Origin: Pseudomonadota bacterium
Lineage (GTDB): Bacteria; Bdellovibrionota; Bdellovibrionia; Bdellovibrionales; SG-bin7
Length of the DNA: 64,000 bases
NCBI GenBank assembly: GCA_034439715.1
Contig: JAWXAY010000033.1
Coordinates: forward strand, 32,001-96,000
Direction of reading: 5' to 3'
In this document: positions 42,001 through 51,000 of the stretch, piece after piece
Numbering within the stretch: position 1 is the stretch's first letter
Layout: every line of letters starts with the position of its first letter
Program-made: the position numbers

Positions 42001-45000
42001 TGGCCACTATTTATTGGCCATGGAATTCTTTTCTGGTTATAAGGCAAGGAATGAAAATCTTGTTTGTATTGCCCCTTCTTTTTTTGGCCTGTACTCGCGA
42101 AGAACCACCGCTAGGTTCCGAAAAAAACCCCGTAAAGTTGTTTTTCGTTCCTTCTATTGACACTAATCTCATTACTGAGAAGGCTCAAGATGTTAAGCGG
42201 TATCTAGAACAAGAAACTCCCTATAAATACAAAGTGTCGGTCCCTAATAGCTACATTGCGGTCGTAGAGGCCTTTGGAACCAAACGCGCTGATGTTTCTA
42301 CCCTAAATACCTTTTCTTATATCTTGGCTTACGAAAAATATGGCACCCAGGCTCTTATTACCACTATTAGATTTGGTAAGCCCACTTATCAGGGACAAAT
42401 TATTGCTAGAGCTGACAGCAAAGTCAAAACTATCAAAGACATTGCGGGTAAGAGATTTGCCTTTGTTGATCCCGCGTCGACTTCGGGCTACCTCTTACCA
42501 AAAAAACTTTTTATTGATAACCACATCAAGCCATCAGAAACAGTCTTTGCACAAAAACACGATAATGTTGTGACCATGGTATATAACAAACAAGTCGACG
42601 CGGGCGCTACTTACCATACACCTAGCGAAAACGGTAAAATCAATGATGCGAGAAAGCTAGTAAAGACCCAGTTTCCCGATGTTGAAGAAAAAGTAAAAAT
42701 TATTTACCTCACAGAACCCATTCCTAACGACCCCATAGTTTTTAGAAAAGATCTGCCAGAAGAAATGAAAAACATTATTGCCGATGCCTTTATTAAGTAT
42801 GTGACTACGAGTTCTGGCAAAGACACCTTAAATGCCATTTTTAGTATAACCGCACTCAAGAGATCGACTGATAAAGATTATGATGAGGTTCGAATTATGT
42901 TAAAGAAACTAGGCGAAACCGCTGAAGGTATGATAAAAAAGCAGTGATGAATCCACTGTTATCAATCAAGAATCTTAAAAAGACTTATCCCAATGGAGTG
43001 GAGGCACTTAAAGGTGTGTCGCTCAGCGTGCAGCCTGGTGAGTTTTTAGTGGTTATTGGTTTAAGTGGTTCGGGTAAATCCACTTTATTAAAATGCGTCA
43101 ATCATCTCATTGACCCCAGCGCCGGTGAAATAATTTTTAATGGCAAAGACATCACTCATGCTAAAGGTGAAGAGGTTCAACAAATTCGTCAGCAAATGGC
43201 GATGATTTTTCAAAGTTTTAATTTGGTCGAGAGACATTCGGTAATTAGTAATGTGCTGATGGGCTCTCTTTCGCGTACTCCAATCTTAAAAAGTATTTTA
43301 GGTTTTTTTTCGACGGCAGAAAAAGCTAAAGCTATGGATTACCTAAAGTTAGTGGGAATTGACGATCAGGCCTATTATCGTGCCGGACAACTTTCTGGTG
43401 GTCAGAAGCAGCGGGTAGCGGTGGCGCGGGCACTTATGCAAAATCCGAAAATACTTTTGGCAGACGAACCGGTGGCAAGTCTCGACCCAGCTACCTGCCA
43501 TGTCGTGATGGACTATTTAAAAAAGATAAATAAGGAGTTGGGGTTGACGATTATTTGCAATCTACATTTTTTGAGCCTGGTCAGACAGTACGCTACTCGA
43601 GTAGTCGCTTTAAAAAATGGAAGTCTGGTTTATGAAGGGTCGCCGCAAGAAATAGACGAAAAATGGTTTGAAAAAATTTACGGCGAAGGGGCAAAGCAAG
43701 TTCATGTTCGGTAAAAATAGCTATCTTTACAAAGCCACTCTATTTGATGCCATTGTCTTTGCCTATCTGAGTACGTTGCTTTTATTTGGGATTTTTTCTC
43801 CCTCAGAAGAAAACCTTCTGGATCTGAAAACAAACTTTCAAATAGAGTTCGCTCTTTTACTTCTCGGCCTTTTTACAAGTCTTACGCTCGCAAAGTTTAA
43901 AATTAAAACTTTGGGTATCGCTATTTTTGAGCCTCCTCATAAAAAAACGCAAGGTTTGGCTGTCCCATTTTACAAAACGTTTTGGGGTGTTGTATTGCTC
44001 ACTGCCTTTTCGGTGACTTGTTACGTGGGTATTAGAGTCACTGAATTTAGTTTCTATGAGTTAACTAACCGCGAAGGTTTTGGAGGAGCCGTCAGGCTGA
44101 TTAAAGGGATTTTTAGTCCAAATTTTAAAGTTTTGCCTCGCGCTATTTTAGAAATTATTGAGACTGTTTACATCGCGTTTGTGGCGACCGTCTTGGCTGT
44201 GCCGCTGGCGTTTATACTTAGTTTTTTCTGCGCCAAGAATATGATGAGTGGCTCTGTGGGCACAAAATTCGTTTATACGCTCTTGCGTGGATTTTTTAAT
44301 ATTCTGCGTTCGGTAGAACCCATCATTTGGGCAATAATTTTTTCCGTTTGGGTGGGAATTGGGCCTTTTGCCGGGATGTTGGCTCTGATGCTTCACACGG
44401 TGGCGAGTTTGGCCAAACAATACTCAGAACAAATTGAGTGTATTGACGACGGCCCGGTCGAGGGAATTCAAGCCACAGGGGCATCGTTTATTCAAGTGCT
44501 GTGGTTTGCGGTGGTACCACAGATCACGCTTCCCTATGTTGCCTTTACGATTTTTCGCTGGGACATTAATGTGCGAATGGCTACGATTATTGGCCTCGTC
44601 GGCGGAGGCGGCATCGGTGACATGCTCATTCAATATCAAGGACAAGCGATGTGGGAAGAGGTGGGGTGTATTGCACTAGTTATAGTTTCAGTCGTTTGGA
44701 TCATGGATACCGCATCCGCTTATATTCGCGACGCAATTAAGTAATTCACGTAGGCGCCATGCCGCAAAATGAGATTTCTCATTTTGGATCTGGCACCCTT
44801 AGCTCTTGTAAAAAACTTCGACAAAATTCATTAACTAATTATCATTTACCAAGAATGCGCCATGTCTACTAAAGTCCAGCATTGAACTACCGATAGGTCT
44901 AGAGACGAGGAATAAAGGGGAATTTCTATGCAGACTGAGTTCTACATCTTTGTAAATGGTAAACAGATGGGTCCCTACCCGATGGGCGATGTCGTGAAAA

Positions 45001-48000: not shown

Positions 48001-51000
48001 AGCCAGAAAAACTAAAGTAGGCGAGCGTAAAATTTTTGTAATCGATAAAGGTACTAACCAAAAGGTAGAAACTGACATTATGTTTGTTGACATATTTTTT
48101 GGCAATGTGATGGAAGGCTAAAGAAATGCGTATTGTAGAGAAGATGAAAAAAATTAATCGCAAAGCTACATTCACGGTGCAGATCACATCGATGGTAGAT
48201 ATGATGACAATCTTATTGGTATTTTTGCTCAATCAACAGAGTGCCAGTTCGGTGCAAGTATCAGTCACAGATGGCCTTGTGCTGCCAATCTCAAGTACCG
48301 CCAACAACCCCATAGAAGCTCTCAAAGTAGTTGTCACCGCAGCGGGAATATTTGTAAACGACAAAAGGGTTTCAGAAATCATCGACGGAAAGATTGTGGA
48401 TTCTAGCTTTGACGCCAAAGATAAAATGTTTATTCCCGCCCTTTATGAAGAACTCGATAAAGAGGCTGAGAATTCTCGAAGAATAGCATCCATAAACGAG
48501 ACTCTAGATTTCGACGGCACTTTAGTTTTACAGGCTGACTCAAGACTTAAATATGAAGTGCTTAAAAAAGTAATGTACACGGCCACATCAGCAGGCTACG
48601 CCAATATTAAGATGGCCGCTGTTGCGGTAGGAGATTAAAAAGTGAAATCGTTTGTAGTGACCTTCGTAATAGTAACTCTGTTCTCTGGCGCACAGGTGCT
48701 TGGGAACCAAAACGTTCTTGATAATCTTCGCATTGATCCTAACGACGAAACGGGCAATGAGGTTCGCGCTTTGAAGACCGAAATACTTGTTAAACAAACG
48801 GAGCAAAAGGCAATGGCCGAACTAACAAAGCTCCTTAAAAAATACCGCGGTACTCAGATGGAGGCTGAACTTTTGTTTAGACAAGCTGAACTCTATATGA
48901 GGCAAGCCAAAACTGATCGATTCTTTGAGTTACAGAAAACAAACGACAAAATGAAAAGACTTGCCCCCCGTTTAGTAGAAAAAGCCTCAGAAAAAAATGC
49001 GGTGACAAAAGCAATTGCCATCTACGATAGCATTGAGGGTCGATTTAGAAACTTTAGGAGCCTCGATCTTGTGTTATTTAATAACGGCTTTGCCAACCAG
49101 AGCATTAAAAACTTTAGCAAGGCAAAAGCGCTCTACACGAGACTATTAGATCGCTATCCCGATTCATTTGTACTTCCTGATGCCTATCTGTCGATGGGCG
49201 AAATGTTTTTTCAAGAAAAGAATTTTTCTAAAGCACTTCAATTTTTCTTGAAGATTAAAAAGTTTCCTGAGGCCAGGGCCTATCCTTACGGTTTGTATAA
49301 AATTGCTTGGACTCACTATAATTTGAATGACGCCACCTCGGGACTTAAAGAACTAGGAAGCCTCGTGAATTTTGGTAGGTCTGTAAAGGAGAAAGGCTTA
49401 GACTCTCGACTAGATCTAAGAAAAGAAGCTCTTGAAGATATGGCATTATTTTTTGAGGATGTCTTTCCAGCTAGTCATGCCTACGATTTCTTTAAAACTC
49501 CAGCTCAAGATTTTGGCGTCGGCGCTGTACTTATGAGACTTACGGAGCTTTACAAATCTCATAGTCGCAACAAAGATGCGGTAGTTGTACTTCATGATTT
49601 GGTGGAGCGCTCTCCTCGGTCTTCTTACTTACCGGTAGCATATAATGAACTCGCCTGGATATTTGAGACTCTGCATGATCGTAAGTCCTCGGTCGTAGAA
49701 CTTTCAAAATTTCACGATATTTGTAAAGAAGGAAGCCGCTGGCAAAAATCTCAAAGAGGAAATGAGCTTGAGGATGAATTTAAGGGATTTAGCGTATCCG
49801 CTGAGCTCAATTGCCAGGAGCTATTTGATGATACCAGTTTGAGACTAGCTTCAAAGTGGCACCGCATGTGGAAGAAGCAGCCTCAGTTTATCGATATTGC
49901 GCAGTCAGCAGAGGCCGCCTACCGACTATACTTAGAATTACCGAGGGACACTAAAGAGGTTAGCCAGGCCAGATTTAACTTTGCAGAGCTTTTGTTCCAA
50001 AATAAAAAATATCGTGAGGCGAGCGAGAACTATGCTCAAGTGGGACAGTCTGAAAAAGACCTGTCGTTAAGGCATGATGCTGGTTATGCGGCCCTCGTAA
50101 GCTTAGAAAAAGCGGTCGGCGAAAAATGGCAGGCAGAAGATATTGTAACTTTTGTGAGATTAGCCAGCAGTTATTTTAAAGGAAATCCTCAAGGTAAATT
50201 CCTACTAGAAGTTAAATTTAAACTAGGATTTTTGTCCTACGAGGCGAAAGATTTTGTTAAAGCCAAAGAGGTCTTTAAAGTTGTGGGAAGCCAAGATAAA
50301 AATAGGGACCTTGCGAGCAAATCTCAGGATCTAATGATGGACATTCTCAACAAAGAGAAGAGTTATACGGAGTTGAAAAACTACGCAAAAAATCTTAAAG
50401 GGTCTGGTGGAAATAAAGAGCGCAACCAAAAATTGACAAAAATTTATGAGGAGTCATTCTTTGCCGAGATACAAGGTATAGAAGACAAACAAGATTACCC
50501 AAAAGCCATAGCCGAATATCTTTCGTTCTCGAAAGACAACCCGACGTCTCTTTTGACTAGCAAGGCTTGGTGGAACGCCATACAACTATACTATAGAATT
50601 GAAAGGTATTTGGAAGCCGCACAAGAAGGTCGAAGATTTGCTATTGCTTATCCTGAGGACAATGGAAATCTTGAGATACTGTTAAAATCGGCTCAGTCTT
50701 TTGAGAAAATAGGGCGATCGACCGACGCTGCTCAAGTACTCATTCAATTGGCGAAGCGAGATACCAAGCAGACTAAAAAATGGGAGCTCTTAGCAGCTGA
50801 TCTTTTTTCTGTAAGTCCCAACAAGGACGAGGCTAGAAAGCTTTACCAAAAATATGCGAAACTGCCCAATGGCAGCGTGGACGCTAATATTTTGGCCAAG
50901 TGGCAACTTCTAGAAGAAAACATTAATGACAAAGAGAGCCTGAAAAAGGTCTATCAACTTGTGTTTGCGGCAGGAATCCAACCCCAAATGAGTGTTATTC

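Follow-up and report, generated by a model that had tools for sequence, protein, structure and literature searches.

Gliding of Bdellovibrio bacteriovorus depends on the GGDEF enzyme Bd0367 and on the cGAMP that it makes; neither the Discussion of the paper reporting this nor text word searches of it name a receptor for that cGAMP (Lowry 2022, PMC9140294). The locus described here, in a window of 64,000 nucleotides from one contig of a genome of the order Bdellovibrionales, raises the question of whether a cyclic dinucleotide could be received by a protein encoded beside a gliding-type machine. The genome-wide survey's note had put forward proteins combining GYF and PilZ domains for this role. 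Both such genes of the genome lie at motor loci, the pairing recurs across the order, and the family is the most obvious candidate. We consider the protein in the window a good candidate for a gliding signal receptor, and somewhat favor the reading in which it is an adaptor that senses a ligand and is tied in function to the Agl-Glt cluster.

The GYF-PilZ gene and its product

The gene and its parts are as follows (window coordinates).

44818..44845, + strand: promoter-like site within the 183 bp separating phnE from the GYF-PilZ gene (consensus scan, 10/12 hexamer matches)
44928..45734, + strand: GYF-GYF-PilZ protein, 268 aa, soluble, lineage A (Pfam GYF_2 twice, and PilZ)
44937..45095, + strand: GYF domain 1, aa 4-56 (family profile against PDB 7z3c)
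45096..45182, + strand: disordered linker, aa 57-85 (pLDDT <50 for aa 62-80)
45183..45332, + strand: GYF domain 2, aa 86-135 (Pfam GYF_2 positions 1-50 of 50)
45396..45710, + strand: PilZ domain, aa 157-261, with FFRRRHAR (RxxxR) and EISSGG (ExSxxG) (Pfam PilZ)

The 268-aa open reading frame matches GYF_2 (PF14237; 66.6 bits, cut-off 25.8) in two stretches, of which that at residues 86-135 is the best (E 1.6e-18); the match to PilZ (PF07238) at residues 157-261 (E 2.3e-9; 37.9 bits, cut-off 22.5) places it in that family also. Its AlphaFold model has a mean pLDDT of 87.7, with the PilZ barrel and the strands and helix of GYF domain 1 modeled at pLDDT >90. There are 546 homologs of lineage A at E<=1e-3; both domains are present in 119 of the 120 homologs listed of these 546, the remaining one being a 152-aa fragment with GYF_2 only. 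Positions 3-61 of the family profile match the GYF domain of GltJ (PDB 7z3c, E 1.3e-6), a structure that is also found among the Foldseek matches of the GYF-PilZ model, at rank 47. Residues W86, G96, P97, W119, and W126 of GYF domain 2 are invariant in the 120 listed sequences, and a KPxxPPK motif is kept in the linker of relatives (K65, P66, and P70 in 98-108 of the 120). The consensus scan gave 6 promoter-like sites in the region against 4.6 expected, and the site above is hence weak.

The genes that follow make up a motor and an Agl-Glt-type cluster.

45776..46810, + strand: VWA/MIDAS-type lipoprotein, 344 aa (weak NCBIfam match, model, Foldseek)
46820..47563, + strand: AglR-like MotA/TolQ/ExbB subunit, 247 aa (Pfam MotA_ExbB, E 4.6e-25)
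47573..48121, + strand: ExbD/TolR-like subunit 1, 182 aa (Pfam ExbD, E 5.7e-12)
48126..48638, + strand: ExbD/TolR-like subunit 2, 170 aa (Pfam ExbD, E 8.9e-13)
48642..51608, + strand: TPR protein in the GltD position, 988 aa (TPR families, YbgF-type repeats)
51605..52504, + strand: TPR protein, weakly GltE-like (NCBIfam gliding_GltE, E 2.7e-5, far under cut-off)
52794..54368, + strand: GltG-like protein with FHA and AgmX/PglI C-terminal domain (Pfam FHA, NCBIfam)
54421..55251, + strand: outer-membrane beta-barrel protein (TIGR04565 OMP_myx_plus, 88.6 bits, cut-off 60)
55263..57653, + strand: GltC-like protein, 796 aa (NCBIfam gliding_GltC, E 2e-35, 122.7 bits, cut-off 450)

One MotA/TolQ/ExbB gene is followed by two ExbD/TolR genes, the AglRQS arrangement, and this motor is encoded with GltD/E/G/C-type genes. 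GltG is recognized by gliding_GltG (E 2.8e-50; 171.6 bits, cut-off 650) and by myxo_SS_tail (103 bits, cut-off 40), GltC by its own model and GltE weakly, while the 988-aa TPR protein matches no GltD model and is so named from its size, its repeats, and its place in the cluster. NCBIfam scores of the Glt and Agl proteins all lie under the equivalog cut-offs, and this includes the AglR-like subunit when scored with the TolQ and ExbB models. The lipoprotein gives weak NCBIfam matches, to CglD and to a model of the Bdellovibrio MIDAS adhesin (55.6 bits, cut-off 700); its model (pLDDT 86.3) finds integrin beta-I/VWA folds in Foldseek (E 2.5e-8), and the true start of its reading frame is probably internal. 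The GYF-PilZ gene apparently heads an operon that runs through GltC. By analogy with Myxococcus, the Agl-Glt-type clusters of this genome would drive gliding; the core set of GltC, D, E, and G with AglRQS is widespread in non-gliders and insufficient for motility (Luciano 2011, PMC3169522).

The PilZ domain and its possible ligand

At E<=0.001 the model has 28 PDB matches, and almost every match listed down to that threshold is a PilZ domain. The top two in Foldseek are the PilZ domain of YcgR (5y6g, 1e-5) and MotI (5vx6, 2.6e-5), the latter also matched by sequence profile (E 0.016), and the best structural matches are PilZ domains with c-di-GMP bound. The first motif reads R158-R-H-A-R162, with both arginines in 120/120 listed lineage-A sequences; R157, S186, and G189 are invariant in the same set, a pattern of conservation that indicates purifying selection.

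The canonical second PilZ motif is (D/N)xSxxG. Lineage A departs from it with EISSGG, in which Ser and Gly are kept and Glu (E184) replaces D/N in 118 of the 120 listed sequences; in the alignment to MotI this Glu stands opposite the Asn of NISAGG. GYF-PilZ proteins form three old lineages, A, A', and B, and the same position holds T, S, M, A, V, or E in lineage B and N or S in A'. A glutamate in A and a variable residue in B and A' count against assured nucleotide binding, whereas RxxxR, Ser, and Gly-Gly are retained across the 120 listed A, 40 B, and most A' sequences, a conservation not easily accounted for unless a ligand pocket exists. The PilZ domain may bind a cyclic dinucleotide.

Non-binding PilZ proteins bridge partners in type IV pilus control, and the PilZ domain here could likewise have ceased to bind nucleotide, in which case the protein would serve the gliding cluster as a constitutive protein-protein adaptor. 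The replacement of the D/N position in all three lineages and its lack of conservation in B and A' would suit such a role, as would GYF domains, which are protein-binding modules; given the retained pocket residues and the ligand-bound state of the top fold matches, we nevertheless regard it as unlikely, if worth keeping in mind. The PilZ proteins MrkH and PlzA also appear among the fold matches (Foldseek ranks 28 and 29), and a protein acting as they do would control expression, the dinucleotide turning on the operon that the gene heads. Two gliding genes indeed have lower transcript levels in cGAMP-less mutants (Lowry 2022, PMC9140294), an effect that speaks for transcriptional control and that a motor-bound adaptor does not explain. 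However, Pfam and NCBIfam searches of the protein found no DNA-binding domain, GYF domains bind peptides, and MrkH and PlzA are weaker matches than YcgR and MotI, so that we give control of expression very little credence.

A second GYF-PilZ gene and a third motor

A second gene of this type lies on another contig (C82).

C82:32096-32815, convergent with the motor: second GYF-PilZ gene (GYF_2 5-50, PilZ 130-225)
C82:32833-34585, adjoining it: second motor, with ExbD, ExbD, and MotA_ExbB

Genome-wide, GYF_2 is matched in 3 open reading frames and PilZ in 13 places, and both domains occur together in only two frames, as the survey's note had said. Pfam bears out the coordinates and the one-TolQ/two-TolR make-up that it gave for both loci, and the motifs read as quoted there (RRHAR and EISSGG in the window, RTHPR and TISVGG in the second protein). 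With ~21 of ~3100 gene slots within two genes of a motor locus, the chance of both genes landing near motors is roughly estimated at ~5e-5. The genome has three one-TolQ/two-TolR loci in total; the third (C100:49709-51467) has neither a GYF-PilZ gene nor Glt genes adjoining it.

That the second gene stands beside a motor is correct, but it forms no operon with it, since the neighborhood is tail-to-tail: the gene is convergent with the motor genes and comes after an MCP gene of the same strand (the contig stops 1 kb further on). The convergent arrangement, with no co-transcription, counts against the adaptor reading.

Neighborhoods across the order

At E<=1e-10, 318/384 genomes of the order have family A (in a few, the match is to PilZ alone, near 1e-11); family B is found in 295/384 at E<=1e-15. 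Among 62 usable lineage-A loci, drawn from related genomes that are not independent samples, a motor is close by in 30, Glt genes only are found in 19 (the next genes being GltD/E/G/C-like and any motor more than 3.5 kb away), and a MIDAS gene only in 10; motor and/or Glt genes follow in 49. In lineage B, 26/40 loci are arranged tail to tail with a second cluster, the operon on that side running GltC-GltD-GltE-GltG-AglR-TolR-TolR, and in a relative the GltD/E/G/C-type set adjoins the B-type motor. Lineage A' is a short single-GYF form in family f3, where the order is MIDAS-A'-AglR in 4/5 genomes.

The order-wide pairing with a motor proposed at the outset is therefore recurrent (30/62 for A, 26/40 for B, 4/5 for A'), but it does not hold for lineages A and B in f3, the largest family of the order (182/384 genomes), in which a motor is near A in 0/25 loci and near B in 0/11. 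Nor is the AglRQS motor the conserved partner, given the 19 loci with Glt genes only and the 10 with a MIDAS gene only; the constant association is with the entire Agl-Glt-type cluster, its TPR proteins, GltG, and GltC included, and not with the motor alone. The claim that the pairing occurs hardly anywhere else was too strong, as the same linkage is seen outside the order, within the phylum, in families f31 (2/2 loci) and f14 (1/1). Our samples agree in order of magnitude with the survey's order-wide counts (226/383 genomes and the like).

A MIDAS-type gene lies directly 3' of lineage A in 29/80 loci. In f3 it follows A in 18/25 loci with no motor or Glt gene near, and A can thus function away from the cluster, which tells against the adaptor reading. 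The real partner could be the VWA/MIDAS lipoprotein, an adhesin whose deployment the protein would control, the motor being adjacent since the adhesin works with the machine; A' is flanked by a MIDAS gene in 4/5 cases, and of the B. bacteriovorus proteins, Bd1483 is a MIDAS lipoprotein and Bd0875 an invasion adhesin (Tyson 2024, PMC11003981). A cytoplasmic protein cannot reach an exported lipoprotein, however, so that an envelope-spanning machine would still be required; in 35/62 usable loci the gene is followed at once by motor or Glt genes, without an intervening MIDAS gene, and lineage B has no MIDAS neighbor. We consider this partnership improbable. The neighborhood could also be inherited synteny without functional meaning, the gene belonging for example with the upstream phosphonate-type ABC transporter genes, and a phnE-like gene is upstream of lineage A at many loci, f3 included. 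The distance to it varies from ~0.1 to 8 kb, and three separate lineages each lie at a gliding-type cluster in differing orientations and families, which makes mere synteny extremely unlikely.

Relation to known systems

The receptor idea is already in print for the PilZ gene Bd1482 of B. bacteriovorus HD100, for which a role in receiving the DgcA signal in gliding was proposed (Hobley 2012, PMC3271064). Bd1482 likewise heads a gliding-type operon, at the 5' end of Bd1473-Bd1483, and likewise adjoins a MIDAS lipoprotein gene, Bd1483 (Tyson 2024, PMC11003981). Its gene order, MIDAS-PilZ-AglR, set beside that of f3 genomes, makes Bd1482 most likely a member of A', the lineage with one GYF domain, unlike the two-GYF gene of the window. 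The literature searched yielded no characterization of Bd1482 and no description of the GYF part. The survey's own caveats stand: the idea is printed for one gene, the second motif is non-canonical, and gliding is by analogy.

The closest PilZ folds are those of YcgR (E. coli) and MotI/DgrA (B. subtilis), brake or clutch proteins of flagellar stators. Both act on MotA, which we take to be, like AglR, of Pfam family MotA_ExbB. They carry an N-terminal PilZN/YcgR-type domain, which Pfam did not find in the window protein; GYF domains stand there instead, and this sets it apart from the stator brakes. Their second motif is the canonical N/DxSxxG, against ExSxxG in lineage A, and they serve flagella, whereas the window protein sits with Agl-Glt-type genes and its contact with AglR is only proposed. 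To our knowledge, PlpA, PixA, and PixB of Myxococcus xanthus are not encoded at motor genes. These are PilZ motility regulators in a host of the Agl-Glt machine (Kuzmich 2021, PMC8316039).

GltJ (AgmX) of M. xanthus has the closest solved relative of GYF domain 1 (7z3c). It is the ZnR-linker-GYF switch of the Agl-Glt machine, and its GYF domain, on the cytoplasmic side, binds a proline-rich stretch of AglZ, linking the machine to a cytoplasmic platform (Attia 2024, PMC11135422). GltJ itself sits in the membrane, combines a zinc-ribbon, a transmembrane helix, and a TonB-C-like tail, and reads MglA-GTP, whereas the window protein is soluble and has PilZ.

A proposed role in the gliding machine

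We propose that the GYF-PilZ protein works in the cytoplasm as a soluble adaptor for an envelope machine of Agl-Glt type, the kind of gliding apparatus known from Myxococcus. The PilZ barrel would take up a cyclic dinucleotide, most likely c-di-GMP, with 3',3'-cGAMP as the alternative; the two GYF domains would tether the protein to short peptides that the machine exposes to the cytoplasm, as happens with the GYF domain of GltJ in Myxococcus; and the ligand would alter the effect of the protein on the motor or on machine assembly, as with YcgR and MotI on flagellar stators. The docking partner would be a component of the machine, and the effect might be that of a brake, a clutch, or an assembly licence. 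What is observed here is the domain make-up and folds, the invariance of RxxxR and of the Ser/Gly residues, and a neighborhood that recurs in three paralogous lineages. Bdellovibrio is reported to be without GltH, I, J, and K (Luciano 2011, PMC3169522), which makes it plausible that a GYF module is supplied by a separate protein.

A bolder version, which we hold to be rather unlikely, has the GYF-PilZ proteins of Bdellovibrio-like predators replace the GltJ switch, their GYF domains docking on the conserved PPxP tail of A-type AglR or perhaps, at rest, on the protein's own KPxxPPK linker, and the Glu-variant pocket reading the dinucleotide specific to gliding, which might be 3',3'-cGAMP in place of c-di-GMP. 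If so, the second messenger would license each of several gliding machines directly at the motor, one machine for each of the paralogs A, A', and B.

The proline-rich tail of AglR

47513..47560, + strand: proline-rich C-terminal tail of AglR (..GPAVPPSTKQKVA; ortholog alignment)

The GYF domains may bind a proline-rich peptide, for which this tail and the linker of the protein itself are candidates. The conserved PPxP tail of A-type AglR is a point new to this analysis; that GYF domains dock on it is doubtful. Lineage B has GYF domains and its AglR no such tail, so the tail cannot be a general docking site; AglR of the third motor locus has the tail although no GYF-PilZ gene adjoins, which also counts against the adaptor reading. 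P239 and P240 are kept in at least 90% of 36 orthologs, and PP or PxP occurs within the last 16 residues of 38/42 A-type AglR sequences against 0/26 of B-type; among A-like AglR from genomes without the GYF-PilZ family, 1/5 has such a C-terminus.

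A GYF-PilZ gene beside an Agl-Glt-type cluster

The GYF-PilZ gene of the window lies exactly at the coordinates given in the genome-wide survey's note. It belongs to a cluster of genes on one strand with only short gaps or overlaps between them, the widest gap being the 289 bp before the GltG-like gene.

Genes of the window cluster and the transporter preceding it
41907-44744, phosphonate-type ABC transporter, upstream of the GYF-PilZ gene
44928-45734, + strand, GYF-PilZ gene, 268 residues; two Pfam GYF_2 domains (best 86-135, E 1.6e-18), then PilZ (157-261, E 2.3e-9)
45776-46810, + strand, lipoprotein of MIDAS type, 344 residues
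46820-47563, + strand, MotA/TolQ/ExbB-type protein (AglR-like)
47573-48121 and 48126-48638, + strand, two ExbD/TolR-type proteins
48642-51608, + strand, TPR protein, GltD-like, 988 residues
51605-52504, + strand, second TPR protein, weakly GltE-like
52794-54368, + strand, FHA protein with AgmX/PglI C-terminal domain (GltG model, E 2.8e-50)
54421-55251, + strand, outer-membrane barrel of 'OMP_myx_plus' type
55263-57653, + strand, GltC-like protein (E 2e-35)

All of the NCBIfam matches to Glt and Agl models in this cluster score under the equivalog cut-offs, and the name of the GltD-like protein rests solely on its size, repeats and position; we therefore regard the cluster as a relative of the Myxococcus Agl-Glt set and not as an orthologous copy of it. 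A structure of the lipoprotein predicted from 32 relatives (pLDDT 86.3) has an integrin beta-I/VWA fold (Foldseek E 2.5e-8), consistent with its weak matches to the Bdellovibrio MIDAS-adhesin and CglD models. The last gene of the cluster (57681-58313) encodes a 210-aa coiled-coil protein without a family, and is followed by genes for an LPG-synthase-type membrane protein and recO.

The 183 bp between the ABC transporter and the GYF-PilZ gene hold one promoter-like site, to which we attach little weight: site counts in the terminator and promoter scan were close to the shuffle expectation, so that the scan gives the operon limits no firm support. An Rfam scan of the entire window returned no matches, and thus no known c-di-GMP or cGAMP riboswitch family is found there at gathering thresholds. 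Sequencing runs listed for this DNA are ten, all DNA runs of microbial-mat metagenomes and several of them perhaps its source; RNA runs are absent from the list.

Inspection by eye of the two TolR-like proteins showed that the first (47573-48121) has Ser/Ala at the position of the ExbD/TolR membrane Asp (..APLLSLIV..), as do its relatives, and that the second (48126-48638) retains the Asp (..SMVDMMT..). The motor of this type may thus have only one proton-binding TolR-type subunit. Both TolR-like proteins retain the membrane Asp in the motor type found at the second GYF-PilZ locus of the genome.

Three lineages of GYF-PilZ proteins

Across the genome, GYF_2 matches occur in three ORFs and PilZ matches in 13 places, but only two ORFs have both domains. 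The second (C82:32096-32815, on another contig) encodes 239 aa with 20% identity to the window protein. It lies 17 bp from the end of an opposite-strand TolR-TolR-TolQ-GltG string. An MCP gene running in its own direction precedes it, and ~1 kb beyond the contig ends.

A search with the window protein yields 546 homologs at E<=1e-3. Both domains are annotated in 119 of the 120 listed, the remaining one being a 152-aa fragment that has GYF_2 alone; the named homologs among the matches listed come from Bdellovibrionales MAGs, except for one partial record labelled Flavobacteriales. Matches to the window protein are present in 318 of the 384 genomes of the order (E<=1e-10), and matches to the C82 protein in 295 of them (E<=1e-15).

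A quick maximum-likelihood tree was calculated from 79 sequences, comprising a random subsample of lineages A (the GYF-GYF-PilZ type of the window) and B (the C82 type), all sequences of A' (a short paralog with a single GYF domain) and all sequences from outside the order. The B clade has an SH-aLRT support of 100, the A clade 96 and A' 88, with A and A' as sisters (98); all three exclude the sequences of the phylum's other families. The A' proteins have ~190-200 residues, with one GYF_2 and one PilZ domain in all five.

The cluster, and not the motor, is the constant partner

Neighbourhoods were labelled by translating all ORFs of the loci and searching them by phmmer (E<=1e-5) with the proteins of this genome. 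For lineage A we took the best 80 of 96 related loci, all from Bdellovibrionota MAGs, of which 62 extend at least 3.5 kb downstream. AglR/TolR genes follow within 3.5 kb in 30 of these 62; a MIDAS gene intervenes in ten of the 30 but not in the other 20. Of the rest, 19 run directly into GltD/E/G/C-like genes without a motor, ten have the MIDAS gene only and three have neither motor, Glt nor MIDAS genes. At six lineage A loci (L019, L025, L028, L029, L031, L040) a motor of the type found on contig C100 of this genome stands directly upstream of the gene.

For lineage B, 40 loci were hand-picked among the 150 matches listed, mostly one per genus. In 26 of them the gene meets a GltC-GltD-GltE-GltG-AglR-TolR-TolR string tail to tail; NCBIfam confirmed the make-up of the string in one relative, and the gap to the cluster end is below 100 bp in 17 of the 26. 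None of the 40 has an MCP homolog beside the B gene at E<=1e-5, so the MCP linkage on C82 is particular to this genome.

The family f3, which accounts for 182 of the 384 genomes of the order, departs from this arrangement. Its lineage B genes are without a motor at 11 of 11 loci (3 of 29 elsewhere). Its lineage A genes keep the phn-side neighbourhood and are followed by a MIDAS gene at 18 of 25 loci, but no motor or Glt gene was found within ~9 kb at any of the 25. In four of five f3 genomes the A' gene occupies the place beside the motor, in the order MIDAS, A', AglR, TolR, TolR, GltD. This fits the arrangement published for Bdellovibrio, where the MIDAS lipoprotein Bd1483 and the PilZ protein Bd1482 are at the end of the Bd1473-1483 operon in the portions of the reports available (PMC3271064; PMC11003981).

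The survey's note had proposed an order-wide pairing of GYF-PilZ proteins with AglRQS-type motors. That pairing is real, old and repeated, but the constant partner is the Agl-Glt-type cluster, with or without motor genes at that place, and although the pairing recurs across the order, it has been lost or rearranged over wide stretches of it. Related genomes share history, so the counts given here are descriptive and not independent trials. That the neighbourhood is mere synteny is very unlikely, against which stands the recurrence of the pairing in three lineages. Also unlikely is that the true partner is the adhesin, a view suggested by the f3 loci at which the MIDAS gene is the neighbour that lineage A retains, and to be set against the 20 loci at which motor genes follow with no MIDAS gene between.

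Outside the order, one locus (family f14) has the same gene order as the window, and at two f31 loci the gene is divergent from a MIDAS-AglR-TolR-TolR-GltD string. Five loci of families f32 and f37 (L160-L162, L165, L167) carry two GYF-PilZ-like genes in tandem; in the second, of 450-530 aa, a long insert separates GYF from PilZ, and neither a motor nor a Glt gene is present within ~9 kb of the pair. The MIDAS gene beside lineage A in a genome of genus g7 was considered as a Bd0875-type invasion adhesin and rejected (75 bits, against an equivalog cut-off of 700).

A conserved PilZ pocket with an altered second motif

In 120 lineage A sequences, R157, R158, R162, S186 and G189 are invariant, and the D/N position of the second PilZ motif is Glu in 118; in a profile alignment with MotI this Glu pairs with the Asn of NISAGG. 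In lineage B, RRxHPR and xxSxGG are retained, with T, S, M, A, V or E at the D/N position, and A' has N or S there in a less regular motif. The predicted structure of the window protein (pLDDT 87.7) consists of GYF1 (4-56), a disordered linker (62-80) and GYF2 (86-135), then two helices, the PilZ barrel and a C-terminal helix. In the PDB it best matches c-di-GMP-bound PilZ domains: YcgR, MotI, a P. aeruginosa PilZ protein (4xrn), Alg44, MapZ, PP4397 and BcsA.

The non-canonical second motif counts against a ligand-dependent mechanism, and GYF-PilZ might be an adaptor without a ligand. Arginines, serine and glycines so strictly conserved nevertheless argue for a pocket still in use, and the Glu fixed in lineage A for one that departs from the textbook form. 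A small PilZ ORF on another contig (C67:42037-42324) reads EISEGG, again with Glu in place of D/N, so this variant is not limited to the GYF-PilZ family.

GYF domains and candidate docking peptides

The best solved relative of the family profile is the NMR structure of the GltJ GYF domain (7z3c, E 1.3e-6). The available text of Attia 2024 (PMC11135422) describes how the beta-sheet face of that domain binds a proline-rich sequence of AglZ, coupling the machine to its cytoplasmic platform, and that of Luciano 2011 (PMC3169522) reports GltJ as absent from Bdellovibrio. Given this resemblance and the reported absence of GltJ, we searched the cluster proteins for proline-rich peptides predicted to face the cytoplasm.

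The A-type AglR, as found in lineage A clusters, ends in a variable spacer and then a conserved PP(x)P..K at the extreme C-terminus; among 36 orthologs, P239 and P240 are conserved in at least 90%. Of 42 A-type AglR proteins, 38 have PP or PxP within their last 16 residues, as against 0 of 26 B-type ones; in five phylum genomes without a match to the family profile, one of five A-like AglR proteins has a proline tail. From the usual TolQ topology we take this end to be cytoplasmic. The linker of lineage A contains a conserved KPxxPPK motif; lineage B has neither the proline linker nor a tailed AglR. Ahead of its membrane helix, the second TolR-like protein of the B-type motor (loci L090-L128) has a conserved N-terminal M[P/A]I[H/Y/R]xPGxRxR, the sole conserved proline-bearing cytoplasmic peptide that we noticed in that motor. 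As partners of the GYF domains, the peptides of AglR, the linker and the B-type TolR are sequence-based leads. Complex prediction of AglR with GYF-PilZ and two c-di-GMP scored 0.00 in both runs; the controls did not fold, so that the score weighs neither for nor against binding.

A candidate receptor at a putative gliding machine

Gliding lets Bdellovibrio exit spent prey on surfaces. According to the available text of Lowry 2022 (PMC9140294), it depends on a GGDEF enzyme, Bd0367, which Ser in place of the base-selecting Asp makes a cGAMP synthase; gliding needs this cGAMP and not c-di-GMP, and we found no receptor named in that text. The available part of Hobley 2012 (PMC3271064) proposes that Bd1482 may receive the signal for gliding, so that, as the survey's note had cautioned, the core of the receptor idea was already in print for one gene.

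We slightly favour a reading in which a soluble GYF-PilZ adaptor would bind a cyclic dinucleotide in its PilZ barrel, engage the cytoplasmic face of the Agl-Glt-type machine through its GYF domains, and thereby set whether the machine assembles or runs, each paralog serving its own cluster. That the GYF domains dock on the AglR tail in particular seems to us rather unlikely. Several observations speak against such an adaptor: lineage A of f3 resides away from any motor, and, in the parts of these papers available, Luciano 2011 (PMC3169522) finds the core gene set insufficient for gliding and Lowry 2022 (PMC9140294) reports a transcript effect. That GYF-PilZ is instead a regulator of expression, which would fit the transcript effect, seems to us very unlikely.

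PilZ adaptors at MotA-family motors are a kind already known, and GYF-PilZ would be one of them. New here are the three-lineage split with its distinct neighbourhoods and the cluster as constant partner; sequence comparison connects the family directly with the solved GltJ GYF domain and brings out the Glu fixed in its second PilZ motif and the PPxP tail of A-type AglR. In the openly searchable literature (subscription journals lying outside the search) Bd1482 appears in Hobley 2012 only, and no protein with both GYF and PilZ was found as judged by titles and the start of abstracts; Bd3100 appears in the openly searchable Bdellovibrio literature only in a 2010 expression note, and the one mention of PilZ in the available part of a 2026 review concerns flagellar brakes. 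A PilZ protein that carries GltJ-related docking modules and has its gene at the machine belongs on a short list of c-di-GMP/cGAMP receptor candidates. If the PPxP tail of AglR is the dock, no second-messenger input to a TolQ/TolR-type gliding motor would have been described before it, and YcgR and MotI would be its flagellar counterparts; should binding fail, the family would still be a conserved, lineage-specific part of Agl-Glt-type clusters.

Related genes elsewhere in the genome

Three loci of the genome have one TolQ-like and two TolR-like genes. The third, of A type (C100:49709-51467; L008:7710-9468), is flanked by polysaccharide deacetylase and YceI genes, with neither a GYF-PilZ nor a Glt gene adjoining; its AglR has a PPPP tail.

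The third GYF protein (C43:37280-39091; L009:7281-9092) has 603 aa, with two N-terminal GYF_2 domains followed, by eye, by a hydrophobic stretch, a proline-rich stretch and a C-terminal part without assignment; it has no PilZ domain. The layout is similar to that of GltJ without the ZnR and the AgmX/PglI tail domain. Neighbouring genes encode a HAMP-SpoIIE phosphatase and a FecR-domain protein, with no Glt genes among them.

Two GGDEF genes (35201-36214 and 38574-39524) lie in the window 5-9 kb upstream of the GYF-PilZ gene, one a GGDEY with Ser (GHVIGS), the other an FHA-GGEEF with the architecture of the invasion cyclase DgcB. We take the final position of GHxxG[D/S] in the GGDEF domain to be the base-selecting site, Asp in most; Ser occupies it in three of the six GGDEF genes of the genome. 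The REC-GGDEF genes on contigs C17 and C94 also have it (DHLFGS), as expected for cGAMP-making Hypr enzymes.
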